Shown here: piece after piece, positions 1 to 28,885 of the stretch
How positions within the stretch are numbered: the first letter of the stretch is position 1
Layout: each line of letters starts with the position of its first letter
Position numbers and translations under genes: made by a program
IMG/VR virus record: IMGVR_UViG_3300031603_000020
Span: 1 to 28,885 of that record
DNA length: 28,885 nt
Reading direction: 5' to 3' (one strand)
Source: a virus
Taxonomy: Duplodnaviria > Caudoviricetes
Notes under the pieces: model-generated
Told to the model about the DNA's origin: nothing
Database searches by the model: none
Seen by the model: only the letters and a program-made list of their open reading frames with translations

Positions 1-1401
1 AAAGAGTTCAGTTTAAAAGAGGGTAAGTTACAGTACTACAAGAAGAAAGTGAATACAATTGTATACAAAGACGGTTCCCCGGTTATCTATAAGTCTGGTA
101 AGAATATAGGCCAGGAGAAAACTAAGATCGTAACTGAAGATGACCTAGATCGTGGGCCGAAGATGCGTAATTGTAATATGTACCACGAGCTACCGGGTAT
201 GTGCAACCCGGAAGATAACTGGAAGTCATCTGTAGAGGGTTACTGGAGTACTGCTGAGGATGTCCTGGTTCAGTTAGATGAAGAACAGGGTGTTCCTTTG
301 GTTCAGACTCTATTGAAACTCAAGGGTATGCTCAAGGACCTCGGGACGTACTACAAGCGGTTCTCTAAGGGTAAATGGACGGGTATGCTAACGAATATCC
401 AAGCTGATGGTTGTGTCCACGGTCAACTGAATCATGCAATTACAGTTACTGCTAGACTCAGTAGTAGCAAGCCAAATTTACAAAATATACCGAAGAAGGG
501 TAAATCTAAGATCAAGAAGACTTTCACCTCCAGGTTCCCAGACGGTGTAGTAGCTGAGATAGATTACAGTCAGCTAGAAGTTGTATGCAAAGGAGTACTC
601 TCGAAAGACGAGGCGTTACTCCAGGCTCTAGTCGATAAGGTCTGTTTCCATTGCGAGTGGGCTGCGTTCGTAACCGGGGAACCTTATGAGTTCGTTTATC
701 AGAAAGCTAAGGTAGAAGGAGATCAGAAGTGGATTGATACCCGTCAAGGGGTTAAGAGTATAACCTTCGGGGAAGCCTACGGGGCAGGAATTCAGAAACT
801 CTCTGAAAGCTCAGGTGTACCTGCGGATAAGATCGAGAAAGCTATAGAAGCGAGGAAGATTAAGTACCATAAGATGTACGAATTCGATGAAAATGTCGCA
901 GAGGAAGTCCGAGGAACAAGACAGGTTACAACTCTGCGTACAGATGGGGGTTACCAGAAGGCCGTTGGGTTCTACCGGAGCTGCACAGGGACGTTGTATT
1001 CTTTCGTAGAAACTGAGGCACAATCCTGGAGTAAATCTCGGGGTATCATGACGAGCTTCTCACCTACTCAGATGAAGAACTACCCATCTCAGGGATTAGG
1101 TGGGGAGATCATGCAGGTACAATCAGGTAGAGTCTGGAGGTACATCATACAGAACGAGCTAGAACATGATTGTTTACTAATTAATACTGTGCATGATAGC
1201 GTTTACTTAGACTTCAGAACCGAGGAGTTAGCCCAGGAGCACCTCCCGGTTATCTCGTGGGTACTCGAGGATGTCTGTAGTTATTTTAATGAAAAATATC
1301 CAGAGGTAGATTGGAACACCCCGTTCCCAGTAGATACAGAGTACGGGGATAATATTATGGGAACTAATACAAAAGTAAAAGAGAGGGTTCATGCTAATTA
1401 G
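1..1401 (+). CDS. Phage DNA polymerase, family A (C-terminal part; 5' end lies outside the window)
   Basis: The frame is open from base 1 (KEFSLKEG...). Motifs: TVTARLSSSKPNLQNIP, motif A AEIDYSQLE, motif B RQGVKSITFGEAYGAG, KNYPSQG, motif C NTVHDSVYLD. Confidence 0.95.
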   Translation, partial: KEFSLKEGKLQYYKKKVNTIVYKDGSPVIYKSGKNIGQEKTKIVTEDDLDRGPKMRNCNMYHELPGMCNPEDNWKSSVEGYWSTAEDVLVQLDEEQGVPLVQTLLKLKGMLKDLGTYYKRFSKGKWTGMLTNIQADGCVHGQLNHAITVTARLSSSKPNLQNIPKKGKSKIKKTFTSRFPDGVVAEIDYSQLEVVCKGVLSKDEALLQALVDKVCFHCEWAAFVTGEPYEFVYQKAKVEGDQKWIDTRQGVKSITFGEAYGAGIQKLSESSGVPADKIEKAIEARKIKYHKMYEFDENVAEEVRGTRQVTTLRTDGGYQKAVGFYRSCTGTLYSFVETEAQSWSKSRGIMTSFSPTQMKNYPSQGLGGEIMQVQSGRVWRYIIQNELEHDCLLINTVHDSVYLDFRTEELAQEHLPVISWVLEDVCSYFNEKYPEVDWNTPFPVDTEYGDNIMGTNTKVKERVHAN

Positions 1402-1588
1402 AACAGAAGTAGTTAAAGATGTACAATTCACTATTGAGAATCATGATGACTGTATTGATATCAAGTGCGGAGACTGGTACGTATTCAAAATTAATAAAGA
1501 GGGTACATTCGTGCGACAAGGTTATATACCAGCTAGTACAGGTCTTTGTTTAAATATCGATGGTACAATTAAAGAAACTTTAACATAG
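1391..1588 (+). CDS. Small hypothetical protein (65 aa), paralog of the next ORF
   Basis: SD GAGAGGG upstream, overlaps the polymerase stop, aligns with 1603..1809. Confidence 0.75.
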   Translation: MLIRTEVVKDVQFTIENHDDCIDIKCGDWYVFKINKEGTFVRQGYIPASTGLCLNIDGTIKETLT

Positions 1589-1602
1589 TAAGGAGTAATA
1601 AT

Positions 1603-1809
1603 ATGGAATTCACTAAGGTAGTAACTGAGGAAGTAACTGAAACATTTAATCAGGATGTAAAACTTGTCATAGATGATATGGTGTCATTAAAAATAGGGGA
1701 TAAGTGGATACTCAGTATTACCCCTGATGGGTACTTTCATAAGTATTATAGCGCTCAGGTAGATGGGTTACAGACTGATAAAGACGGTAGAATTAAGGAG
1801 GACAAGTAA
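1603..1809 (+). CDS. Small hypothetical protein (68 aa), paralog of the preceding ORF
   Basis: SD AAGGAG upstream; TAATG stop/start coupling with the next gene. Confidence 0.8.
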   Translation: MEFTKVVTEEVTETFNQDVKLVIDDMVSLKIGDKWILSITPDGYFHKYYSAQVDGLQTDKDGRIKEDK

Positions 1810-2648
1810 TGATCAAGGTTAACAAAGAAGCAATCGAGAATTATGACGGTGGTGACTACACACTAGAATTGCAGTTCATCGAAGCTGGACCCCAGGTTCC
1901 TGCTCGGTTAGTATCTTACGTAGAACTCGGGAAACATGCCCCGATGTTCCAGGGTAAACGTCAGGTGTACGATTCAGGGAAAGCTGCTGGTAAAGAGAAA
2001 CCCCCTGAGTTATTGATTCATCTTGTATTCGAGTTCCCGATGGAACCGTACGATGTTAATCCGTTGTGTATCAAGACCTCTGTACCATTCGGTACAAAGG
2101 GTGAGTTCATTAATAAACTGAGTGTATCCGATGCGTTAGCCTCAGGTAAGATCTCTCTGTCTTACGCTAACCGGAGTAAGTACATGAAGTACCTGAACGC
2201 TATGAATTCTGCCTTGGGTACTAACTACGAAGGTCTTGACTCTTTCGTAGGTGAAGCGTTCCTCGTGGGAGTCACGAATAAACCAGGGACTAAAGCCAGG
2301 GAAGACGGGTCGTTACCTGTTTACGCTAATATGAAACCTGATGCTATCCAGAGTACGATCTATAAAGATCCTCGGACACGTAAAGAGGAAACTATGGAAG
2401 TACCTGAGGTCGTAGGGACTTACTGCCCTGTGTTCGATTGGGATAACCCTCAGAAAGATGCTTGGGATCTAATCCCGGAGTACCTCCAGAAGTGCATCAA
2501 GTGCGCCGTGAATTATACCGGGAGTCTTACTGAGCTGATGCTCGTAGATTACCCTGAAGGTAACACTGAAGAGGGTACAACGGATGACCCAGGTAAACCT
2601 GAGGTTAACAAGGGTGCACCTGCGGAAGCAGATGATCTCCCGGTATGA
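1809..2648 (+). CDS. Putative ssDNA-binding / replication accessory protein (279 aa)
   Basis: Lies between polymerase and exonuclease as in phiKMV/SP6-type phages; KPPELLIHLVFEF segment; acidic C-tail ending ADDLPV, resembling the SSB DDDIPF tail. Function is inferred. Confidence 0.55.
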   Translation: MIKVNKEAIENYDGGDYTLELQFIEAGPQVPARLVSYVELGKHAPMFQGKRQVYDSGKAAGKEKPPELLIHLVFEFPMEPYDVNPLCIKTSVPFGTKGEFINKLSVSDALASGKISLSYANRSKYMKYLNAMNSALGTNYEGLDSFVGEAFLVGVTNKPGTKAREDGSLPVYANMKPDAIQSTIYKDPRTRKEETMEVPEVVGTYCPVFDWDNPQKDAWDLIPEYLQKCIKCAVNYTGSLTELMLVDYPEGNTEEGTTDDPGKPEVNKGAPAEADDLPV

Positions 2649-2860
2649 AAGTACTAGTAATACCAGACGATTGTCATATAACTAGAGTACCTGAGAACGA
2701 GAACTATCCATGCAAAGGGTGCGTCTTCGAGACTATAGATGAGGATGCAGAAGGGTTCACCTTCCAGTGCGCTATGGATTATCTCTTCAGGGTTCCTTGT
2801 GTAGACACGATCTACGCTATAGTAGAACGAGACGACGAAGAGGAGGAGGAATATTTATGA
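2645..2860 (+). CDS. Small Cys-containing hypothetical protein (71 aa)
   Basis: ATGA coupling at both ends; CKGC..C..C pattern; acidic tail. Confidence 0.65.
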   Translation: MKVLVIPDDCHITRVPENENYPCKGCVFETIDEDAEGFTFQCAMDYLFRVPCVDTIYAIVERDDEEEEEYL

Positions 2861-3768
2861 CCTTTAAAGTACCAACTGTAGCAGTAGTCAAGAGAGTACC
2901 TGGAAGGGAATGCCTCATTGATGCTGATATGGTAGCTTATTATGCCTCCTTCGGTCAAGACGATTGCGCCCTCGAGGTAGCAACTCGTAGGACTGATGAG
3001 AGGATGCAACAGATGCTATATGAGAGTCAGTCCGAGAGCTATACAGCGTATCTCACTGGGTCCGATAACTACAGGAACGCAATAGCAACCCTCCAGCGAT
3101 ACAAGGGGAACCGATATGATGCAGACGGAAATAGACTTAAACCGCAGCCTGGATGGTTACCGGAGGTTAGACAACATCTCATTACTTCCTGGAAGGCTAT
3201 CATATGTAATGGCGAAGAGGCTGATGATGCACTTGGCATACACCAAGCTAAAAACATTAAGGAGGGGAAATCATCTATCATCTCCTCCGGTGACAAAGAT
3301 CTTCAAATTAACCCCGGACTGCACCACAATATGTACAACGGGTTCATCACTGAAGTAACTGAGTTCGGTCACTTAGAGATAGATACTAAGGGGAAGGTCA
3401 GAGGCTCAGGGTTAATGTTCTTCTACGCTCAGATGCTCATGGGGGACTCTGCTGATTGGATCAAGGGGTTACCTAAGGTTACTGAGAGTATGAAAGAGAT
3501 GTTCCCTGGGATACGTAGGGGTGGGGTTGGTCCTAAGACAGCGTACCAGATACTTAGCCCTCTTAAGTATGAGAAACAGCTACACGATACCGTCTGGTTC
3601 TGCTATAAGTCCTATTGGATGGAACACGAGTATAAACACTGGCGTACTAGGGAAGTATTCAAAGCAGGTCTAGAGACAGCTAGAAAGCAATTCTTAGAAC
3701 AGGGGAGATTACTATGGATGAGACGGGAGATAGGAGAAATGTGGAACCCGAAGTTCCCTCTAGAATAA
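2857..3768 (+). CDS. 5'-3' exonuclease (T7 gp6 / flap-endonuclease family)
   Basis: LIDADMVAY, YKGNR, EEADDALG, SSGDKDL, QMLMGDSADWIKGLP. Start moved to ATG 2857 because of a strong GGAGGAGG SD and ATGA overlap. Confidence 0.92.
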   Translation: MTFKVPTVAVVKRVPGRECLIDADMVAYYASFGQDDCALEVATRRTDERMQQMLYESQSESYTAYLTGSDNYRNAIATLQRYKGNRYDADGNRLKPQPGWLPEVRQHLITSWKAIICNGEEADDALGIHQAKNIKEGKSSIISSGDKDLQINPGLHHNMYNGFITEVTEFGHLEIDTKGKVRGSGLMFFYAQMLMGDSADWIKGLPKVTESMKEMFPGIRRGGVGPKTAYQILSPLKYEKQLHDTVWFCYKSYWMEHEYKHWRTREVFKAGLETARKQFLEQGRLLWMRREIGEMWNPKFPLE

Positions 3769-5662: not shown

Positions 5663-7253
5663 AACTGAATTCGGGAAGACTATATTCAAGAATAAATATA
5701 GTAACCCAGGTGGTGACTGTTCCTCCTGGGCAGACCTCTGTGATACCCTCGTTAAACGAGTATGCACAGGGTTAATGACTAATGGTGATATGACCCAACT
5801 CTCAGCGTACATGCGGGATATGAAATTCATACCAGCCGGGAGATACCTTTATTACGCAGGTAGACCTGCTGCTTTCTTTAATAATTGCTTCAGCTTCATC
5901 GCAGAGGACTCTCGAGAGGGTTGGGCTGATCTAGGCTATAAGCATTTCATGGCTCTAATGGTTGGTGGTGGCTGCGGTACGCACTACGGTAAAGTCCGAG
6001 GTCACGGAGAAGTGATCACTAAAACCGGAGGATTAGCCTCAGGGCCTATTCCTCTTATGGAATCTATGAACGAAATAGGTAGGAATGTTCAGCAGGGAGG
6101 TAGTCGGAGATCCGCTCTGTACGCCTCATTACCCTATTGGCATCCGGATGTACCTGAATTCCTAGTTAGTAAAGATTGGAGTGCAGAAGTCAGTAATCTG
6201 AAAGCTAAAGATTATAACTTCCCTGCACCGATGGATATGACTAATATCTCTGTCCAGTACGACTCAGAGTTCTCGTTAGAATCTCCAGCGTTCATCCAGA
6301 ACGTAGAGCAAGCATGTAAAACAGGGGAACCTGGGATGCAATTCGATCTATTCGCTAAGAAAGAAGTAGGGCGGAACGCTTGCGCTGAGTTCATAACGGA
6401 CCAGGATTCTGATCTATGCAATCTCGGGTCGCTGAATCTTAGCCGAATTAAAGATCTGAAAGAATTCAGAGATGTAACTTATCTAGCTGCTCAGTTCCTA
6501 GTCTGTGGCTCAGTTAAAGCAGAGCTACCGTACGCTAAGTGTTACACGGTACGAGATACTAGCAGGAAGATAGGCTTAGGGCTAATGGGTGTACACGAAT
6601 GGCTCTTAAAAAGGGGTTACAAGTACACCGTTCCGCAAGAGTTACATAACTGGTTAACGCATTACGAATTACAATCAGAACACGGAGCGAATATCCTCAC
6701 GGACCGCTTGGGTATCTCTGGTTGCAAGAAATACCGCTCAGTGGCCCCTGCTGGATCAATCAGTATCCTCGCTGGTACTACCTCAGGTATAGAACCGTTG
6801 TTCGCTACAGGTATCAAGAGACGCTTCCTAGAGGGTAACGAGTGGAAGCATCAGTACATCGTGGAACCCTTAGCGAAATACCTAGTATCAGAAGGATTCA
6901 ACCCGGAGGATATCGAAACGTCCTCAGATCTCAGTAAGGATATTGAAAGAAGAATTTCTTTCCAGGCTGATATCCAGGAGTACGTTGATATGGGTATCAG
7001 TAGTACCCTGAATCTACCAGCCTGGGGTACTCAGTGGAATAACGAGAGTACCCTTAGTACAACAACAGAAATAGTTAAGAAGTACGCTCCTATGCTCAGA
7101 GGATTAACGTTCTATCCTGACGGGTCCAGAGGCGGTCAACCGTTAACTTCAGTCTCTTACAAAGAGGCACTAGATAAAGAAGGGACAACTTACGCTGAAG
7201 ATCTAGAATTCTTAGAGACAGTGAGTTGCCCCTCAGGAGCTTGTGGGATATGA
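5652..7253 (+). CDS. nrdJ: Ribonucleotide reductase, class II (adenosylcobalamin-dependent)
   Basis: KFIPAGRYLYYAGR..FFNNC, GGSRRSA, GEPG, active-site NACAE, CNLGSLN, APAGSIS, C-terminal CPSGAC pair; no NrdB partner nearby. Confidence 0.88.
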   Translation: MTFRTEFGKTIFKNKYSNPGGDCSSWADLCDTLVKRVCTGLMTNGDMTQLSAYMRDMKFIPAGRYLYYAGRPAAFFNNCFSFIAEDSREGWADLGYKHFMALMVGGGCGTHYGKVRGHGEVITKTGGLASGPIPLMESMNEIGRNVQQGGSRRSALYASLPYWHPDVPEFLVSKDWSAEVSNLKAKDYNFPAPMDMTNISVQYDSEFSLESPAFIQNVEQACKTGEPGMQFDLFAKKEVGRNACAEFITDQDSDLCNLGSLNLSRIKDLKEFRDVTYLAAQFLVCGSVKAELPYAKCYTVRDTSRKIGLGLMGVHEWLLKRGYKYTVPQELHNWLTHYELQSEHGANILTDRLGISGCKKYRSVAPAGSISILAGTTSGIEPLFATGIKRRFLEGNEWKHQYIVEPLAKYLVSEGFNPEDIETSSDLSKDIERRISFQADIQEYVDMGISSTLNLPAWGTQWNNESTLSTTTEIVKKYAPMLRGLTFYPDGSRGGQPLTSVSYKEALDKEGTTYAEDLEFLETVSCPSGACGI

Positions 7254-7720
7254 ATAAAATTAGATGCGATGAATGCGAACACCAGAATACTCTTTGTGGT
7301 ACTTTTGATCACTGTTGTACGCACCCTGGAGGATATCACGATTACTTCGAGGTTAAAGTAATAAAATCTTGTTTCAATTGTAAATACCAAGATACTACTT
7401 GTTACAATACAGTTGGATATTGTGAAGAATACGACAAATGGGAACCCAAGGAATCCGAGGAAGAACCATGTATAACCCCGGTGGACCTTATAGGTATCAA
7501 GTACGGACCAGACTCAGTACGCTCTAGGAACGTTGGAGAGTCCGATTACGCTCTGCATAAGATACAACCTTGGGATATCTGGGAAGAATACGAATTGAAC
7601 CCTTGGGACGCTGATATCGTTAAGAGGGTGCTCAGGAATAAAACCGGAGAATCTAGGGTCCAGGAGTACAATAAAATTATACATATTTGCGAAGAAAGAG
7701 TCAGACAATTGACCATATAA
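7250..7720 (+). CDS. T7 gp1.7-like / DUF3310-like nucleotide kinase with Cys-rich N-terminus
   Basis: ATGA coupling to the nrdJ stop; N-terminal CDEC, CC, CFNC; C-terminal VGESDY..HKIQPWD...DIVKRVLR..K...EYNKIIHI pattern. Confidence 0.65.
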   Translation: MNKIRCDECEHQNTLCGTFDHCCTHPGGYHDYFEVKVIKSCFNCKYQDTTCYNTVGYCEEYDKWEPKESEEEPCITPVDLIGIKYGPDSVRSRNVGESDYALHKIQPWDIWEEYELNPWDADIVKRVLRNKTGESRVQEYNKIIHICEERVRQLTI

Positions 7721-8184: not shown

Positions 8185-8380
8185 AGCCCCGGCTATCTCT
8201 AAGGTACTATTAGGGTACTTCGAGAAGCTATTCACAGCACCAGATATTAAACCTGGAGTACCCTATATGGCAGATCATCTTATTTATCAACAAGGGATCA
8301 ATCAGGTTCTTAGGCATATGAGGAGTTTGAATGAAAGACAAGAAGCAGGAATACGAGAGCGATATACTAAGGGAGATTAA
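8114..8380 (+). CDS. Hypothetical protein (88 aa), positional equivalent of the small pre-portal genes of T7-like phages
   Basis: TTG start with GGAGGG SD; PAISKVLLGYFEKLF..IYQQGINQVL pattern. Confidence 0.65.
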   Translation: MIPLSSLRGTPSKRLADYEQTLNEAPAISKVLLGYFEKLFTAPDIKPGVPYMADHLIYQQGINQVLRHMRSLNERQEAGIRERYTKGD

Positions 8381-8729
8381 TTTAGACCAAAGTGTAGCAC
8401 TGAGTATGTTCCCTACGTTAACACCAGGGACTTACCAAGGGTTAGCTGTAGTAGACTCTACTGGTTATACTGTAGCTTACTTAGCTATAGAGTTATCTGA
8501 AGGAGCAGCCTGTGCGTTACATCTTTATATCCCCGAAGAACATAAGAACAAAGAGAATATCATCTGGTTAAAATCAGTATTCGTAAGAGAGGTTCATCCC
8601 TGGATTAAATCTCAGGGTAAAGACTACGTTATCGTAACTTGTCCGTACGAAGATCAGAAGACTAAAGAATTATTCATAACTTTCGGGTTCGATCCGAGTT
8701 CCCTCTGGATGGGCCTAATGCAAATCTAG
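8331..8729 (+). CDS. Putative GNAT-fold acetyltransferase-like protein (start uncertain)
   Basis: LHLYIPEEHKN and KELFITFGF resemble GNAT motifs A/B; pre-portal position as in SP6-like phages. Confidence 0.5.
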   Translation: MKDKKQEYESDILREINLDQSVALSMFPTLTPGTYQGLAVVDSTGYTVAYLAIELSEGAACALHLYIPEEHKNKENIIWLKSVFVREVHPWIKSQGKDYVIVTCPYEDQKTKELFITFGFDPSSLWMGLMQI

Positions 8730-8739
8730 AGGAGGAACT

Positions 8740-9087
8740 ATGGGAGAAACCTTATTATTAATAGGATCTAGTATCCTAGGGGCAGGAGCTTCAGCAGGAG
8801 TAGCTACAGCAGTTGGTGGTCTAGTAACAGCCGGGGTATTCACTGGAGCAGCAGCTTTGACAGGAGCCTTTGATTCACCAGATATATCTACTCCAGCAGC
8901 CTTAGCTACACCGATTGATAAGACTACAGCAGAGCTACAGGATGAGCTAGACGCTCCCCTGATTGGTGATGAGAAGTCTAGGAAAAAGAAAGCCGCTGCC
9001 TCGAAGTCACAATTCAAGGTAGAGCTAGATACAGAATCAGGTATTAACATACAAGATACTCAGAAGGTAACTGGGGTACAACTATGA
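8740..9087 (+). CDS. Small virion/tail assembly protein (T7 gp7.3-like)
   Basis: Gly/Ala-rich N-terminus, KSRKKKAAASKSQFKV..SGINI C-terminus, directly before the portal; SD GGAGG. Confidence 0.6.
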   Translation: MGETLLLIGSSILGAGASAGVATAVGGLVTAGVFTGAAALTGAFDSPDISTPAALATPIDKTTAELQDELDAPLIGDEKSRKKKAAASKSQFKVELDTESGINIQDTQKVTGVQL

Positions 9088-10637
9088 TAGAATACGATCC
9101 AGCTATACCTAAATCTAGATACAACGTACTGAAAGCTGGACGAGATCAGTACGTGACTAGAGCCGAGGATTACAGTAAAGTAACCCTCTCTTATATTATG
9201 CCTGATGTAGAAGATCGGACTTCCTCTGAAGTACAGAATGACTTCAATTCTGAAGGTGCAGCTCTGGTTAATCATCTAGGTAACCGTTATGTACAAGAGT
9301 TATTCCCAACGGCTAAACCCTTCTTCCGCCTGAGGATAGATGAGTTCACTAAGAAACCAGACGAGGATACAACCGAGAACGATGCCCTGTTAGCTATCGG
9401 AGAAAGACGAGCTAGATGGGCCTTTGAACAACGAGAGGCCCGTCCGGTGTTACTCGATGCACTACAGCATTGTATCGTTACAGGTAACGGATTAGTTATG
9501 TTCCCTCCAGATGGAGCTAAACCTACGTTCTATGCTCTAGATGAGTACGTTATCCAGAGATCCCCGAACGGTGATGTCTTAGAGATAATCACGGAAGAGA
9601 CGAAGGCTATTAATGCCCTGAGTGCTGATATAAGAGACGCTGTTATAGCTGAGTTAGATATAGCAGCAGATGCTAATATGAACGAAGAGACAGCTACTAT
9701 CTATACTTACATCAGGATAGATGAGGAGAACCCGGATAACTTCCTGGTTGATCAATCCGTTGAATCTATAGCAGTAGGTGATGAACACCAGAGTTATCCT
9801 AAGGAGTTACTCCCTTGGATACCCTTGGTATGGAAGAGAACAAGACGAGAGCATTACGGTAGAGGTCTAGTAGAGGATCATTATGGTTCCTTCTGGGCGC
9901 TCTCAGTGTTAACCGAGGCGTTAATCACGGGTGCTGCTGTAATGACTGATATCAAATACCTAGTCAGACCTGGATCAGTACTAGATGTAGTAGCTATGAA
10001 CTCTGCTGCAACTGGGACGTATCACTACGGTTCCCCTGATGACGTAGGGGCGGTCCAGACTAATAAACAGGCTGACTTCCAGTTCATAGCAGCTATCATA
10101 GCGGATTACAAGAAACATCTAGGTAAAGCGTTCCTGATGATCTCGAGTCAGATCAGAGATTCAGAGAGGACTACAGCCGAAGAAAACAGGATCAGAGCGC
10201 AGGAGCTAGATCAGAGTCACGGTGGTACTTTCTCGAACTTCGCTAGTACTCTCCAGAGTCCTATAGCTCGGTTACTCCTTAGGGATATCGATATTAATAT
10301 CAAGGGTTCCGGGATTGAACCCGTGATCGTAACCGGATTAGACGCTATGGGTAGATCAGCAGAGAACGAGAAGATCCGGTATCTGCTCGATGATGTATCA
10401 CTAATTAATAACGTTCCAGAAGAGTTCAGAGCTAGGTTAAGACCATCGAATCTTATATCTGTATTAGCTACAGGTAGAGACGTAGAGTACGAGAAGTGGG
10501 TTATGACCGAAGAGGAATTCTTAGCGGAACAGCAAGCAGCCCAAGAAGCCCAGGCTGGACAAATGGCTGGAGAAGCTATGCTAGATAAAGCTGATGCTTC
10601 CCAGATCGCAGAAGGAGTACAACAAGGAGTACAATAA
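9084..10637 (+). CDS. Head-to-tail connector (portal), T7 gp8-like
   Basis: 517 aa; GAALVNHL, VTGNG, PWIPLVW..EHYGRGLVEDH, RDSERTTAEENR, VTGLDAMGR. Confidence 0.95.
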   Translation: MIEYDPAIPKSRYNVLKAGRDQYVTRAEDYSKVTLSYIMPDVEDRTSSEVQNDFNSEGAALVNHLGNRYVQELFPTAKPFFRLRIDEFTKKPDEDTTENDALLAIGERRARWAFEQREARPVLLDALQHCIVTGNGLVMFPPDGAKPTFYALDEYVIQRSPNGDVLEIITEETKAINALSADIRDAVIAELDIAADANMNEETATIYTYIRIDEENPDNFLVDQSVESIAVGDEHQSYPKELLPWIPLVWKRTRREHYGRGLVEDHYGSFWALSVLTEALITGAAVMTDIKYLVRPGSVLDVVAMNSAATGTYHYGSPDDVGAVQTNKQADFQFIAAIIADYKKHLGKAFLMISSQIRDSERTTAEENRIRAQELDQSHGGTFSNFASTLQSPIARLLLRDIDINIKGSGIEPVIVTGLDAMGRSAENEKIRYLLDDVSLINNVPEEFRARLRPSNLISVLATGRDVEYEKWVMTEEEFLAEQQAAQEAQAGQMAGEAMLDKADASQIAEGVQQGVQ

Positions 10638-11482
10638 TGGCAGTAGAATTAACAGACGAAACTAAAGAAGCCCTAGAAGCTCAGGGTGGAATAGAAGACG
10701 ATAAGGCCACGGGCGCATCGGACACCGACAAGGATACACCTGAGGACATCGACCTGCACCTTGAGGATACTGGGGATACTGATGAAGGCAATGAGGCCGA
10801 GGAATCCAGTGAGTCAACTGATCTGAACAAGACAGTAGACGAGACACTTAAGGATGCAGGATTTGATGTAACAGCTATAGCTAAGGAAATCACTGATACA
10901 GGTAAGATCTCAGACGAGTTAATAGCTAAGGCGAAAGAGAAGTTAGATCCTGATCTAGTTGATGCGCACGTACAGAGATTGAAGGCCGAAATAGAGCTAA
11001 CTAAGATCAAGGCTAGTAAAGAGTACAAAGAGCAACTAGAGAAGAACGCTAAGGTTAAAGAGATGAACGATTACGTCTTTAACGCAGTCGGTGGTGAGGA
11101 TAAATTCAAGGCCCTTGGAGAAACCCTCAAAGGCAATATGTCTAAAGAGGAGCTAGGTATCATTAACGCTAAGTTACTCTCAGGTAACAAAGCTCTGGTG
11201 AATGAAGGTTTAAAATCAGCAGTAACTGAATACAAGAAAGCTAAGGGACTAGGAGGAAAACTCATGGAAGGTGACGGTGACAATACTAACACAGGAAATA
11301 CTGTTCCGCATATCACTAAGGAAGATTTCAGGGCTATAACTGGTTCTGATAAATTTAAGACCGATCCCATTTATAGGGATAAAATGCAAGCTGCCAGGTT
11401 GAAGTCCATCGAGATCGATAAGAAGAAGTACGGTCCAGGGACGTATTACGGGTTTGGCCAAAATGGTAGATACGAACTTTAA
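10637..11482 (+). CDS. Capsid assembly scaffolding protein, T7 gp9-like
   Basis: Acidic N-terminus, VGGEDKF, KFKTDPIYR; lies between portal and capsid. Confidence 0.88.
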   Translation: MAVELTDETKEALEAQGGIEDDKATGASDTDKDTPEDIDLHLEDTGDTDEGNEAEESSESTDLNKTVDETLKDAGFDVTAIAKEITDTGKISDELIAKAKEKLDPDLVDAHVQRLKAEIELTKIKASKEYKEQLEKNAKVKEMNDYVFNAVGGEDKFKALGETLKGNMSKEELGIINAKLLSGNKALVNEGLKSAVTEYKKAKGLGGKLMEGDGDNTNTGNTVPHITKEDFRAITGSDKFKTDPIYRDKMQAARLKSIEIDKKKYGPGTYYGFGQNGRYEL

Positions 11483-11499
11483 TGTATTAAGGAGTAATT

Positions 11500-11598
11500 A
11501 TGACAGACAACGTATTTGATGCTACCACTTTAATGTACCCAATGGCGCAGAACTACTCAGCCGACAAGTTTGCGCTAACCATCGAGATGTTCGACGGT
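11500..11598 (+). CDS. Major capsid protein, exon 1 (33 aa; joins 12382..13290)
   Basis: SD AAGGAG then ATG 11500; MTDNVFDATTLMYPMAQNYSADKFALTIEMFDG resembles T7 gp10 DKLALFLKVFGG; ends in U at the P1 U-G wobble. Absent from the ORF track. Confidence 0.9.
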
Positions 11599-12381
11599 TA
11601 CACGGCCGTCCTAGCGTAGCGATATGCTATAAGAAAACAGTGCGAACTCAGGGGACCTCTCAATGAGACAATCCTGAGCTTTAGTGTCAGTTCGTATAAC
11701 CCTTTATAAGGAGAGTATATGAACTTTAAAGAATTGAAATACATAGCTGAATACCCACGGTACGGAGGAACACCTGATGGACGGATTTACTCCTTTAAAT
11801 CAGATAAGTACTTAACTCCTGTTACTAAGAGTAATGATTACCAATGTGTATCATTAACACGGTATGGGAAAGCAAAACAGATCTCTATACACAGGATTAT
11901 AGCTTCTTTATTCTGTGTTAAACCAGAAGGATATAATACTGTTAATCATTTAAACGGTATTAAATCAGACAACAGAGCATGTAATTTAGAGTGGTGCACA
12001 ACTGCTCAGAATAATAAGCATGCTTATACTACTGGCTTGAAATCTCATGTAGGAGAAGAGCATAATCAAACACATTTAACTAATAAAGATGTATTATTTA
12101 TTAGGCAAGCCTTAGCCGAAGGCGAGCGTAATGCTGATCTTGCCTTTCAGTATAACGTAAGCAGACCAACTATATGCGATATTAAATATCGTAGAAGTTG
12201 GACACATATTTAAAGCTATGAACTGACACTGGAGTGCAACGACTATCCCCTCGGGGAGTAGGGTTAAGTAACCCGAAGCGCACTGGATCTTTTTAAAGAT
12301 CATGATATAGTCTGATCTGTATAGTGATATACAGCAGCTTAATAAGCGGGTAAAGATTAACGACCTTTACTGAACACTAAG
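11599..12381 (+). mobile_element. Self-splicing group I intron (IA2-like), 783 nt, in the major capsid gene
   Basis: P1 exon GACGGT / IGS GCCGTC (11605-10); P2 with GCGA loop; P3 CAGTGCG/CGCACTG; P4 CTCAGG/CCTGAG; P6a 11683-96/12217-30; P7 GACTA (12241-45)/TAGTC (12308-12); P7.1, P7.2, P8; P9 with GTGA loop; terminal G 12381; splicing restores the reading frame. Confidence 0.95.
11719..12213 (+). CDS. Intron-encoded HNH homing endonuclease (NUMOD4-like + HNH + C-terminal HTH; I-HmuI/I-BasI-like)
   Basis: IHRIIASLF, VNHLNGIKSDNRACNLEWCTTAQNNKHA, LAFQYNVSRPTICDIKYRRSW; looped out in P6a; own SD AAGGAGAG. Confidence 0.93.
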   Translation: MNFKELKYIAEYPRYGGTPDGRIYSFKSDKYLTPVTKSNDYQCVSLTRYGKAKQISIHRIIASLFCVKPEGYNTVNHLNGIKSDNRACNLEWCTTAQNNKHAYTTGLKSHVGEEHNQTHLTNKDVLFIRQALAEGERNADLAFQYNVSRPTICDIKYRRSWTHI

Positions 12382-13290
12382 CGAGTACACGAAATTATGC
12401 AAGCTGAATCTACCCTCGATGGTATGTTCGTTTTTAAACCCCTGATCGGTACAGACACTATGTCTAATAACGTTATGGGTCAGCCTACACTTCAGGCTGT
12501 TTCTCCAGGTGTAGAGCCTGTTGCGAAAAAGATCGAAGTTGGTAAGAATATCGTCCAGGTTAAAACCCCGATTATCGCTCGTGTAACCACAGCGATGCTC
12601 GCTGACGTCCAGGATCACCTGGATATCAGGTCCAGGACTCCACAGAACTTCGGTAAGAGGATCGCTAAATCCCTCGATGAAGTCCAGTTCGTACAGATCG
12701 TTAAGTCTATTCTGTTCGATGATGGTGACACTAAGGGTACTGGTGGGATTCTTTCTAAGGGACAGACTGTAACCTTAGATACCGCCCTTGATGAACTCGT
12801 AGCAGCAGATCTTACTACTGCTATTTATGAACTATCTCAGGCCCTTATGGAAGAGGAAGTATCTCAGACTGATGGTAAACTCTTCATGGCCCCTGCGCAG
12901 TACTTCACTCTCCTGAAGAATGATGATCTGCTCGATAAGGATATCAATAAGGAAAATGGATCTTACGCACATGCTGCTATCCAGGTTGCCTCTGGTATGC
13001 CTATTGTAGCAACTAACAGGATGTCCCAGGCAGCAGATACAGTTGCTTCCCCGGTTAAGACTGATAGTACTGCTGCTCTTTATGGTGCTGCTTATGAGAC
13101 TTCTTCTGCTGAAGCTGATATCGTAGCTGCGTTCGTTACACCGGAAACTATCATGGTAGCTCAGAGTATCCCTCTGACTTCTGATGTGTACTGGGATAAG
13201 AGACTACTGACTTGGTTCATTGATTCATACCTCGCTATCGGTTGCGGTCCTGATCGAACTGATAAAGGCGCTGGTATTTTCAAAGCCTAA
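12382..13290 (+). CDS. Major capsid protein, exon 2 (spliced product 335 aa), T7 gp10-like
   Basis: RVHEIMQAES..GTDTMSNNVMG, PAQYFTLL, WFIDSYLAIGCGPDR; in frame with exon 1; followed by a strong terminator. Confidence 0.93.
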   Translation, partial: RVHEIMQAESTLDGMFVFKPLIGTDTMSNNVMGQPTLQAVSPGVEPVAKKIEVGKNIVQVKTPIIARVTTAMLADVQDHLDIRSRTPQNFGKRIAKSLDEVQFVQIVKSILFDDGDTKGTGGILSKGQTVTLDTALDELVAADLTTAIYELSQALMEEEVSQTDGKLFMAPAQYFTLLKNDDLLDKDINKENGSYAHAAIQVASGMPIVATNRMSQAADTVASPVKTDSTAALYGAAYETSSAEADIVAAFVTPETIMVAQSIPLTSDVYWDKRLLTWFIDSYLAIGCGPDRTDKGAGIFKA

Positions 13291-13300
13291 GTAACACAAT

Positions 13301-13335
13301 AAGCCTCCTTGGGAACACCGAGGGGGCTTTTTTTT
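13301..13335 (+). terminator. Intrinsic terminator after the capsid gene (T-phi equivalent)
   Basis: AAGCCTCCTTGG-GAACA-CCGAGGGGGCTT stem-loop followed by a T run. Confidence 0.9.
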
Positions 13336-13440
13336 CTATACTACGGCTTCGGGCTTAAATAACCATCTGCCTTCTTCGTCGACAAAAGTTGGAATAACAG
13401 TAAAGGCCCGACCCAATTATAATAATTATAGGATGGACAA

Positions 13441-14007
13441 ATGGAACAAACAGAACTAAGGGTAATAAATGCCTTACTTAAAGTTATAGGAGAGTCCCCG
13501 GTTAACACTAAAGATTTGAGTCATCCTGACGTATTATCTGCTATCGGGGTATGGGAAGAAACTAGTGCATCTATACAATCTATAGGCTGGTGGTTCAATG
13601 TAGAATCCTGGGAGTTAGCTGTGGAAACCTCAGGGGAAGTTAAACTACCGAGTAATACTATCTCTATCGATACAGACGATACGAATTATATCAAGAGGGG
13701 TAACCGGCTGTACGATCTAGAGACGCATACTTATGACTTCAGTGCAGAAGACACAGTAGACGTAGATGTACTATCCGAGTGGTCAATCGAGGATCTCCCG
13801 GCTACTGCTTATAATTATATCCTGGCGGAAGCTAAAGCTACTATGCTAGCTGACTTCGCTATGGACGCTAATAAGTTAACTAAATTAACTACAGCCGCTA
13901 CTGTAGCCTTTCACTTACTACAAGTACAGAATCTTAAATTCAACGGACCCTCAGCGACATCTAGCGGTGCTGCTCAGACGTTACTACAGAACCAACCTAC
14001 TAGGTAA
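13441..14007 (+). CDS. Tail tubular protein A (T7 gp11-like)
   Basis: TELRVINALLKVIGESPV, IQSIGWWFN, RGNRLYD, EDLP. Confidence 0.92.
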   Translation: MEQTELRVINALLKVIGESPVNTKDLSHPDVLSAIGVWEETSASIQSIGWWFNVESWELAVETSGEVKLPSNTISIDTDDTNYIKRGNRLYDLETHTYDFSAEDTVDVDVLSEWSIEDLPATAYNYILAEAKATMLADFAMDANKLTKLTTAATVAFHLLQVQNLKFNGPSATSSGAAQTLLQNQPTR

Positions 14008-26955: not shown

Positions 26956-27639
26956 ATGAGTATAACATTAATACAGATTGAGCCTACGACTCCACTCGTG
27001 ACTACCCCCGAGGATACCCTCCAGGATATAGATACGAATTTCGAGGGTATCAAGACGGCTGTAGATCTGAATACATTGAAGGATGCGAATGTATCAACAG
27101 AGTTAAGCCTCGGTACTATCGGGGGTTCCACGGTTGCTATCAGTAGTGACGGTGGGGCGAATGACGTAACTATCCCTGCGGCTACTTCGAGTACAGCCGG
27201 GGTAGCGACTGGGGCGCAGATAACAGCTATCACAGCGAATACCGCTAAGGTATCCTATAGTACTGCTGCGTCAGATGCTGCTGCTCTGAATACATCAAAA
27301 CTTACCAATGCCACGCATACTGGAGAAGTAACAGGTTCAGGCGCTTTAACAATCACAGACAACATAATTGATGAGGCCAACCTGAAATTGGATGAGGCCC
27401 CAACGAATGACTTTGTATTGACTGCGGATTCTGCAAAAACAGGTGGAATGAAATGGGTAGCAGCTACGGGTGGTATGGCTGATATAGTAGAAGACACCAC
27501 ACCCCAACTTGGCGGTGATCTTGATCTTAATGGCTTCACGATATTAGATTTACCAGGTGTGAGTGATTTTGATGGCGGGGCTTCAACAACAGTGTACTCA
27601 AGCGCAGACATAATTCTTGAGAGTGGAGGATCAATCTAA
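26956..27639 (+). CDS. Putative virion fibre/adaptor protein (227 aa)
   Basis: Thr/Ala/Gly-rich; THTGEVTGS, VLTADS..GGMKW, DTTPQLGGDLDLNG and terminal DFDGG motifs typical of fibre proteins; SD AAGGAG. Confidence 0.65.
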   Translation: MSITLIQIEPTTPLVTTPEDTLQDIDTNFEGIKTAVDLNTLKDANVSTELSLGTIGGSTVAISSDGGANDVTIPAATSSTAGVATGAQITAITANTAKVSYSTAASDAAALNTSKLTNATHTGEVTGSGALTITDNIIDEANLKLDEAPTNDFVLTADSAKTGGMKWVAATGGMADIVEDTTPQLGGDLDLNGFTILDLPGVSDFDGGASTTVYSSADIILESGGSI

Positions 27640-28280
27640 TGGCAGTAATATTAAGACAAAGACGTGACACAGCAGCTAACTGGACCACTAACAATCCGGT
27701 TATTCCAGATGGACAGCTATGCTTCGACGAGACAAACAACACATTCAGGATAGGAAATGGGGCATCTAACTACGCCGATCTATCAATCCAGTCTGGGGTA
27801 GCGGGAGGTGGCTTATCAAACACAGTAGATGACACCACCCCACAATTAGGCGGTGACCTGGATTTGAATGGACACGCAATAACAGGAATTACAACAGGAG
27901 CAGACGTATCATACACAGCCCTTGCAGTAGCAGATCTTTCGGACTCAGCAACTCCATCTGTTCTTACAACAGCAGAGACAACAGGAAAGCTTATTTCAAA
28001 TTACAAAACCTCTGGTGCAGACCATGTTTTTACAATGCCAGCAGCACACACAAAGGGTAATGTGATATTCATAATCGGTGACGAATTTCAGATAGACATT
28101 GAGCCAGTTGCAGGGGACTTATTTTATCTCAATGGAACTGCAATGGCAGCAGATGAACATATTGTAAACATCGCCGATACGCTTGGACAACAAATAGTGG
28201 GCATGTGCGCAAATATCAACGGGACACTTAGGTGGATGTTTAAGTCTGATAGTGCTGATTTTGCGGAGGCTACGCCATAA
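27639..28280 (+). CDS. Fibre-associated protein with an Mtd/hyaluronidase N-terminal-like domain (213 aa)
   Basis: ILRQRRDTAANWTTNNPVIPDGQLCFDETNNTFRIGNG..YADL; second DTTPQLGGDLDLNG; TAATG coupling on both sides. Confidence 0.72.
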   Translation: MAVILRQRRDTAANWTTNNPVIPDGQLCFDETNNTFRIGNGASNYADLSIQSGVAGGGLSNTVDDTTPQLGGDLDLNGHAITGITTGADVSYTALAVADLSDSATPSVLTTAETTGKLISNYKTSGADHVFTMPAAHTKGNVIFIIGDEFQIDIEPVAGDLFYLNGTAMAADEHIVNIADTLGQQIVGMCANINGTLRWMFKSDSADFAEATP

Positions 28281-28885
28281 TGACTAATTTAGCGGTTTTA
28301 GGATTATTAGGGCTTAGTGGAGGGGTGAGTGGACCGTCTTTATGGACATTTGGACGTAACAACTATGGTCAATTAGGCCAAGGTGATATAGTTTATTTAT
28401 CAAGTCCGGTTCAGGTTGGCTCTTTAACAGATTGGAGTTCTATAAGTTGTGGCGAATACCACACGACAGGAATTAAAACAGATGGGACTTTATGGACATT
28501 TGGATATAACGACTTTGGTGGATTAGGCCAAGGTGATCTAGTTAATTTATCAAGTCCAGTTCAAGTTGGATCATTAACAGATTGGAGTTCTATAAGTTGT
28601 GGCCTATATCACACAACAGGAATTAAAACAGATGGGTCTTTATGGACATTTGGACGTAACTACTATGGTGAATTAGGTCAAGGAGATGTAGTTAATTTAT
28701 CAAGTCCAGTTCAAGTAGGATCATTAACAGATTGGAGTTCTATAAGTTGTGGCTCATATCACACAACAGGAATTAAAACAGATGGGACTTTATGGACATT
28801 TGGAAGTAACTACTATGGTGGATTAGGCCAAGGTGATACAGTTAATTTATCGAGTCCAGTTCAAGTAGGATCCTTAACAGATTGG
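28280..28885 (+). CDS. RCC1/BLIP-II-like beta-propeller repeat protein (3' truncated; not in the ORF track)
   Basis: ATG 28280, 202 open codons to the window end; repeats of (S/T)LWTFGxNxxGxLGQGD..LSSPVQVGSLTDWSSISCGxYHTTGIKTDG. Confidence 0.9.
   Translation, partial: MTNLAVLGLLGLSGGVSGPSLWTFGRNNYGQLGQGDIVYLSSPVQVGSLTDWSSISCGEYHTTGIKTDGTLWTFGYNDFGGLGQGDLVNLSSPVQVGSLTDWSSISCGLYHTTGIKTDGSLWTFGRNYYGELGQGDVVNLSSPVQVGSLTDWSSISCGSYHTTGIKTDGTLWTFGSNYYGGLGQGDTVNLSSPVQVGSLTDW
28337..28885 (+). repeat. 150-bp tandem repeat array (3 full units plus 1 partial)
   Basis: Units start at 28337, 28487, 28637 and 28787; manual count of 17/150 differences (unit 1 vs 2) and 12/150 (unit 2 vs 3). Confidence 0.95.

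Follow-up and report, generated by a model that had tools for sequence, protein, structure and literature searches.

We analysed a 28,885-base stretch of viral DNA (IMG/VR record IMGVR_UViG_3300031603_000020; Duplodnaviria, Caudoviricetes), called the window below, and conclude with high confidence that its T7-type major capsid gene is split after codon 33 by a td-type group I intron (subgroup IA), with an HNH homing endonuclease gene in the loop of helix P6. Self-splicing of this intron is predicted from sequence and structure. A first-pass annotation of the same DNA had proposed that a group I intron interrupts a T7-like capsid gene, and the proposal held up: homologues that lack the intron are continuous at the joint, the intron is homologous to the td intron of T4-type phages, its helices covary among relatives, and the order of the surrounding genes is that of T7.

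The capsid reading frame runs for 33 codons (exon 1) and then enters an insert of 783 nucleotides (nt), in which it stops at TAG 11617-11619; the resulting open reading frame (ORF), 11500..11619, encodes 39 amino acids. The frame of the next ORF (12397..13290, 297 amino acids) is open back to 12382, and there is no AAGGAG-like site in the sequence before its ATG at 12397. These lengths and positions agreed with those given by the first-pass annotation. The product of exon 2 matched the Pfam family Gp10A-like (PF21703; 32.5 bits, cut-off 27), PHROG 267 (major head protein) and the Protein Data Bank (PDB) entry 7y3t (E = 2e-29), in whose chain 29 residues precede the one aligned to exon 2 residue 9. 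With a domain above its cut-off and an N-terminus that is full-length once spliced, the protein belongs to the T7-type major capsid proteins.

In a metagenome protein collection, the capsid had 101 matches. P0001 was the gene-caller product of the window locus itself, 297 amino acids long and 100% identical, which is the truncated automated call that had been foreseen; the next matches were 332-344 amino acids long, with 66-80% identity. We joined the exons in a script and aligned the translation with eight intronless homologues (P0002, P0003, P0005-P0008, P0017 and P0019). The spliced translation had 335 amino acids, compared with 332-342 in the homologues. Residues 24-43, around the joint, aligned with no gap and with 12-17 identities in 20 positions, and P0003 has the identical ten residues there (FDGRVHEIMQ), in agreement with the joint FDG/RVHE claimed earlier. 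Annotated capsids of four isolated phages (Vibrio 526E57-1, Alteromonas H4/4, Curvibacter P26059B and Pseudomonas VSW-3) have 30-36 residues ahead of the residue aligned with the start of exon 2, and their alignment with the spliced protein is also unbroken at the joint. A homologue alignment that breaks across the predicted junction had been set beforehand as a possible refutation; the alignments were continuous, and intronless alleles were found.

The insert can be drawn as a complete td-like ribozyme (Table 1). All 83 pairs of the hand-drawn structure are standard in the window, which bears out the core pairings claimed before (P1 with U-G, P2-P9, P7.1/P7.2, two GNRA loops and a terminal G); in the P10-like pairing of 11599-11604 with 12382-12387, which had also been claimed, five of the six pairs form. 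The minimum-energy fold of 11588-11700 recovered P1, P2, P4 and P5 (z = -2.44 against shuffles), and the centroid fold of 12214-12381 recovered P7.1, P7.2, P8, P9 and P9.2. A blastn search indicated that 12238-12376 (139 nt) is 75-77% identical to the 3' part of the td intron in T4-type phages, where the records are annotated with both td and I-TevI. The td intron of phage RB3 (1016 nt; 434-1449 of L036, the L numbers being our locus labels) has a 3' part with a matching order from P7 to P9.2. When the 5' half was compared with the td locus by short-word blastn, only chance words of 8-9 nt were returned. The presence of P7.1 and P7.2 between P7 and P3', together with the homology to td, places the intron in the td-like subgroup IA; we take IA2 to be the subgroup label of the T4 td intron type.

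For the analysis of covariation, we aligned six full inserts with MAFFT (alignment A2) and projected the window structure onto the columns, which gave 460 cells for the 83 pairs. Pairing was found in 92.4% of the cells, compared with 33.5-43.2% when the 3' partners were slid by 1-3 columns. Changes on both sides occurred in 41 of the 83 pairs, compared with 4-8 in the slid controls, and in none of 500 shuffles were pairing, double changes or covariation score as high as in the real alignment. Helices P5, P7.1, P7.2, P8, P9, P9.1 and P9.2 were 100% paired across the alignment. The U-G pair at the 5' splice site (columns 17/36) was present in all five sequences with letters there, and in L013 the guide covaries with the exon, C-G becoming G-C (columns 14/39). 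These results supported the conclusion that compensatory change maintains the group I core P3-P8, including the P3/P7 pseudoknot.

Several results weigh against this reading or restrict it. The first-pass annotation had named a search with group I covariance models as a check, and its outcome was mixed. In E-value mode, Rfam model RF00028 scored 35.5 bits on 12170-12334, with E = 3.7e-7 when the region was searched and 1e-5 over the whole window. It had a second partial match at 11648-11677 (11.3 bits) and was the sole Rfam match in the window at E ≤ 0.1; however, at gathering thresholds Rfam gave no match, 50 bits being required, and another Rfam search, over the whole record, gave none at E ≤ 1. 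The related introns scored between 27.7 and 45.1 bits with the same model; the blastn homology to td is much the stronger evidence. In addition, the RF00028 alignment places the P1-P2 of the model on the end of the endonuclease gene and not on the real P1-P2; both this misplacement and the splitting of the model arise because a 526-nt loop with an ORF interrupts the ribozyme. The folding energy of the 3' domain was no better than that of shuffles (z = -0.74), and folding energy alone is weak support for the intron. Across the six introns, P1 was only 66.7% and P2 80% paired, because MAFFT misplaces the P2 gap, L033 and L034 lie at another exon site, and L029 is without P1/P2. The six rows represent about four lineages, L013/L032 and L033/L034 being near-duplicates; shared ancestry therefore inflates the covariation counts, which overstate the number of independent events. 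The borders themselves have an equivalent, as shifting both of them one base to the left encodes the same protein; 11598/12382 was chosen by the group I rule that a U precedes the 5' splice site and that the intron ends in G. Among the runs listed with window DNA, none is recorded as RNA. Finally, recent horizontal transfer between lineages was considered and was unsupported, the intron parts and the exons having diverged to a similar degree. In the comparison of the window with L013, residue identity is 52% for the endonuclease and 71% for capsid exon 2, and nucleotide identity is 84% for the ribozyme 3' part; long residence or old invasions would fit these values better than recent spread.

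The gene in the P6 loop encodes a homing endonuclease, as had been claimed. Its product matched Pfam HNH_3 above the cut-off (29.8 bits, cut-off 24.8), PHROG 59 (E = 4.7e-41) and PDB 1u3e, the HNH homing endonuclease I-HmuI (E = 1.2e-10 over residues 14-107); NUMOD4 scored 20.9 bits, below its cut-off of 23.4. Intact homologues of 171-184 amino acids occupy the same loop in the introns of L013, L029, L033 and L034. I-HmuI, which we take to be the nickase of the SPO1 DNA polymerase intron, resembles the window protein in the HNH core over residues 14-107, in size (174 and 164 amino acids, respectively) and in being intron-encoded. It differs in its target, which for the window endonuclease would presumably be capsid-gene sequence.

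To describe the distribution of the intron, we used 30 viral-contig loci with related capsids and 18 metagenome-contig loci, several of which duplicate viral contigs. Three of the 30 viral-contig loci have an intron at or near the site, 26 have no insert, and one (L017) is uninformative; L007, although cut 12 nt before the joint, reads through it. The 18 metagenome loci comprise the window itself, L039, 14 intronless loci and two uninformative ones. In L013 and L032, an insert of 806 nt interrupts the capsid gene at the very codon boundary found in the window, and L039 has the 3' end of an L013-type intron directly before exon 2. The insert of L029 (2150-2997) measures about 831 nt and lies at or near the window's site, its 5' border being unfixed. 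L033 (2182-2997) and L034 (same coordinates) have no intron at the window's site; a related intron lies about 55 codons into their exon 2, after EVG/EVGD, with a 171-amino-acid HNH gene, an unfixed 5' border and RF00028 scores of 31.6 and 30.6 bits, respectively.

In the L029 insert, the HNH gene and the core are intact (RF00028, 45.1 bits), but no convincing P1, P2 or clean 5' splice site was seen by eye. Its capsid (P0085, 286 amino acids as called) is without about 33 residues that are present in all other homologues, and the insert may be a decaying copy or a misassembly. Further RF00028 matches at L033:298-447 and L029:702-732 (27.3 and 26.5 bits, respectively), about 2 kb upstream of the capsid gene, suggest more introns in the portal or scaffold region.

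The sequencing runs that contain window DNA are all marine metagenomes, and X1-X3 possibly represent the source sample. Two runs from other studies, X4 and X5, have contigs that match pieces of the intron-plus allele without a single difference. The X4 pieces, 11300-12119 and 12115-12724, jointly cover 11300-12724, and neither alone spans the insert. On the basis of these identical pieces, the insert is not an assembly artefact. No intronless joint for this phage was found in contigs from four DNA runs. In the marine runs, several short contigs of other organisms match only the conserved P7'/P9 stretch 12293-12337 and then diverge, which shows that these samples also contain td-like introns of other phages.

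We propose that the intron splices itself from the late mRNA as follows. Guanosine would initiate the cut at U11598 through the U-G pair of P1, the P10-like pairing would position exon 2, and ligation after G12381 would join U11598 to C12382, from which the 335-amino-acid capsid would be translated. Ribosomes on unspliced RNA would likely halt at TAG 11617; since this stop lies within P2 and before P3, they would end ahead of P3 and the core. The td intron likewise has an early in-frame stop. The endonuclease would likely nick or cut intronless capsid alleles of co-infecting relatives near FDG/RVHE, and repair would copy the intron in (homing). In all likelihood, the intron is selfish and, while splicing is efficient, neutral for the phage; it is a real element of an ordinary selfish kind, and it opens no new mechanism.

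A wider proposal, which we put forward tentatively and hold to be possible rather than probable, is that td-like HNH introns form a family at at least two capsid sites of marine T7-like phages, and probably in other late genes, and that the endonuclease serves as a weapon against co-infecting relatives. A rival whose intronless capsid allele is cut would have its most needed late gene blocked or converted, and an intron endonuclease of phage PhiPA3 is described as interfering with a competing phage (PMC11620839).

We consider it unlikely that the splicing efficiency of a real intron times or tunes capsid output, for example through coupling with translation or through the state of the host. 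Every capsid protein made must indeed pass through splicing, and a study by Sandegren and Sjoberg from 2007, to go by its title, reportedly ties the splicing of T4 introns in vivo to efficient translation and correlates it with host growth state; however, the window has no regulation-specific feature, and the intron appears dispensable because, of the 29 viral-contig relatives that are informative, 26 produce this capsid from a gene uninterrupted at the site. The presence of an endonuclease gene and the patchy occurrence of the intron are both consistent with a selfish element.

It is quite improbable that the intron is decayed or inactive, leaving a broken capsid gene or a 297-amino-acid product from Met 12397. 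The 297-amino-acid ORF of the gene callers, the Rfam score under the threshold and the related L029, which has no recognisable P1/P2 and a capsid about 33 residues short, would agree with decay, but none of the 83 drawn pairs is broken in the window. A conserved, in-frame exon 1 follows a ribosome-binding site, while Met 12397 lacks one, and the N-terminal 30-odd residues are present in all eight intronless homologues. Contigs of separate runs also contain parts of the allele in identical form. It is barely credible that the insert is a chimera of assembly, or that a free-standing endonuclease gene lies between two genes and no splicing takes place: although the record is metagenome-derived and free-standing HNH genes are common beside T7-like capsid genes (one follows that of Curvibacter phage P26059B, for example), identical intron-plus pieces occur in runs from other studies, homologous inserts lie at the identical codon boundary in L013, L032 and L039, the sequences on either side of the ORF make up a td-like ribozyme that shows covariation, and exon 1, with its 33 codons, could not function as a product of its own because the homologues have it fused.

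The self-splicing td-type intron that we favour can be compared with several known systems. The T4 td intron with I-TevI shares the helix order including P7.1/P7.2 and P9.1/P9.2, the endonuclease in P6, the 5' U-G pair, the terminal G and, at 75-77% nucleotide identity, the 3' half from P7 to P9.2. It differs in sitting in the thymidylate synthase gene, in encoding the GIY-YIG enzyme I-TevI and in its length of 1016 nt, whereas the window has a late capsid gene, an I-HmuI-like HNH enzyme and 783 nt; the 5' half of the window intron has no significant blastn similarity to td. Among T7-like podoviruses, phage phiL7 reportedly has a DNA polymerase group I intron (Lee, 2009, known to us from reference lists), and Yersinia phage Yep-phi has, under the annotation 'DNA polymerase', a match that covers 88% of the 3' half with 69.7% identity. 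Phage K1F has gp5.3, described as belonging to a group I intron in a T7-like DNA polymerase gene (PMC4925675). All three are T7-like podoviruses with td-like ribozymes, but their introns lie in an early or middle replication gene, not in the capsid gene.

Capsid-gene introns have been described in other phage groups. In mycobacteriophage LittleE, the capsid-gene intron measures about 820 nt and contains an HNH gene, and its splicing was demonstrated by reverse transcription PCR and N-terminal sequencing (Pope et al., 2013; PMC3706429). As described there, it resembles the window intron in interrupting the major capsid gene, in carrying an HNH endonuclease, in being missing from close relatives and in having a U before the 5' site and a terminal G; it differs in that LittleE is a temperate siphovirus of a host with high GC (guanine plus cytosine) content and that the endonuclease gene is on the opposite strand. 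The likeness is one of description, and the type is given by the authors as 'most likely group I'. The same article cites a capsid-gene intron of lactococcal phage Tuc2009 (PMC3706429). In crAss-like phages, group I introns are reported in major capsid genes (Yutin et al., 2021; PMC7886860). These are also metagenome-derived cases in which endonuclease-encoding group I introns split capsid genes and complicate annotation, but the phages belong to another order, the endonucleases are of other types (LAGLIDADG is mentioned), and the introns were found from protein domains and not from RNA structure, according to that account (PMC7886860). Full-text literature searches found no report of a capsid-gene intron in T7-like phages or Autographiviridae; the pertinent passages of PMC4925675, PMC10580990, PMC10410586, PMC9145550 and PMC8557907 concern DNA polymerase or psbA introns or merely cite one. 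The novelty suggested by the first-pass annotation was overrated, since the LittleE and crAss-like cases are published and sequences related to the 3' half occur at split portal and terminase genes of isolated Autographiviridae.

The intron adds a T7-like capsid gene to the sites of td-type introns. Together with the second capsid site and with the portal and terminase genes of isolated Autographiviridae, it points to late structural genes as a regular niche of such introns, beyond genes of DNA metabolism. It also affects annotation: the 297-amino-acid capsid of the gene callers (P0001) is without the first 38 residues, and phylogenies or structure predictions of marine podovirus capsids would inherit this error.

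The 3' half of the intron matched 737 records in all by blastn, and 43 Pectobacterium phage records matched the query. In Pectobacterium phage Clickz_B8 (L055, MK095200.1; Autographiviridae), the 'collar protein' (portal) gene is apparently split at 855-3092; in its insert, a td-like ribozyme 3' half with 70% identity to that of the window comes after a gene for an HNH homing endonuclease, and the insert is unannotated as an intron. In Vibrio phage VEN (L058, 1182-3778; Autographiviridae), a 31-nt core match lies between the halves of a split terminase large subunit gene. The 3' half also matched Acinetobacter phage vB_MZM_4AB-P (L056, 134-3324), phage KZY1 (L035, 1171-3322) and Xanthomonas phage CP1 (L057, about 2330-2690). 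The contexts of these matches, VEN included, are a split terminase large subunit, N4-like RNA polymerase or primase/helicase gene, or a position just 3' of a DNA polymerase gene, and none of them carries an intron annotation.

Table 1. Positions of the split capsid gene, the predicted intron and its helices, and nearby features in the window. Percentages and double changes refer to alignment A2.
Feature	Position	Strand	Remarks
AAGGAG ribosome-binding site of capsid gene	11489-11494	+	5 nt before ATG 11500; sequence reading
Capsid exon 1	11500-11598	+	33 codons, ends GAC GGT; 16-24 of 33 residues identical in eight intronless homologues
Group I intron, td-like	11599-12381	+	783 nt, last base G
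P1	11593-11598 with 11605-11610	+	exon plus internal guide; U11598-G11605 at 5' splice site; in minimum-energy fold
P2 hairpin	11612-11618 with 11623-11629	+	7 pairs, GCGA loop; contains TAG 11617-11619; in minimum-energy fold
P3	11638-11644 with 12279-12285	+	95.1% of cells paired; 2 double-change pairs
P4	11647-11652 with 11673-11678	+	97% paired, 3 double changes; encloses P5; partial RF00028 match 11648-11677
P5	11658-11661 with 11665-11668	+	100% paired, 3 double changes
P6/P6a	11679-11693 with 12220-12234	+	15 pairs; 82% paired, 9 double changes; endonuclease gene in loop
AAGGAG ribosome-binding site of endonuclease gene	11708-11713	+	sequence reading
HNH homing endonuclease gene, I-HmuI-like	11719-12213	+	164 amino acids, intact, in P6 loop
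P7	12241-12246 with 12307-12312	+	89-100% paired
P7.1	12247-12256	+	100% paired, 1 double change
P7.2	12261-12274	+	100% paired, 3 double changes
P8	12286-12301	+	100% paired, 5 double changes
P9	12317-12334	+	GUGA loop; 100% paired, 4 double changes; in centroid fold
P9.1	12337-12347	+	100% paired, 2 double changes
P9.2	12349-12371	+	100% paired, 5 double changes; in centroid fold
Terminal G, 3' splice site	12381	+	td intron and L013 and L029 introns likewise end in G
Capsid exon 2	12382-13290	+	302 codons plus stop
Portal gene	9084-10637		PHROGs
Scaffold gene	10637-11482		PHROGs
Terminator-like hairpin and T run after capsid gene	13301-13339	+	1 found, shuffles mean 1.6; consensus match only

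The virus record has an estimated completeness of 67%, and the window start cuts the DNA polymerase gene. According to PHROGs, the early part of the window encodes DNA polymerase (cut), exonuclease, endonuclease VII, dUTPase and ribonucleotide reductase, and the capsid gene is followed by genes for two tail-tube proteins, internal virion proteins and a tail fibre, which is the T7 order. Among isolated phages, the best capsid matches were Autographiviridae and other marine podoviruses at 30-37% identity, including Foturvirus, Kalppathivirus and Napahaivirus; megablast of 11300-13500 against isolated phages gave no match. No RNA polymerase gene was found among the 24 ORFs scanned in this 67% complete fragment, which starts inside the DNA polymerase gene. 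The label T7-like therefore rests on gene order and protein families.

The ORFs at 7226-7720, 8331-8729, 8740-9087 and 26956-27639 (115-227 amino acids) had no PHROG match at E ≤ 1e-5; the one at 7226-7720 shares a 28-nt overlap with the end of the ribonucleotide reductase gene. The last ORF (28280-28885), which lies 3' of the tail-fibre genes and is cut by the window end, matched RCC1-repeat families, 'regulator of chromosome condensation' (E = 4.4e-28).

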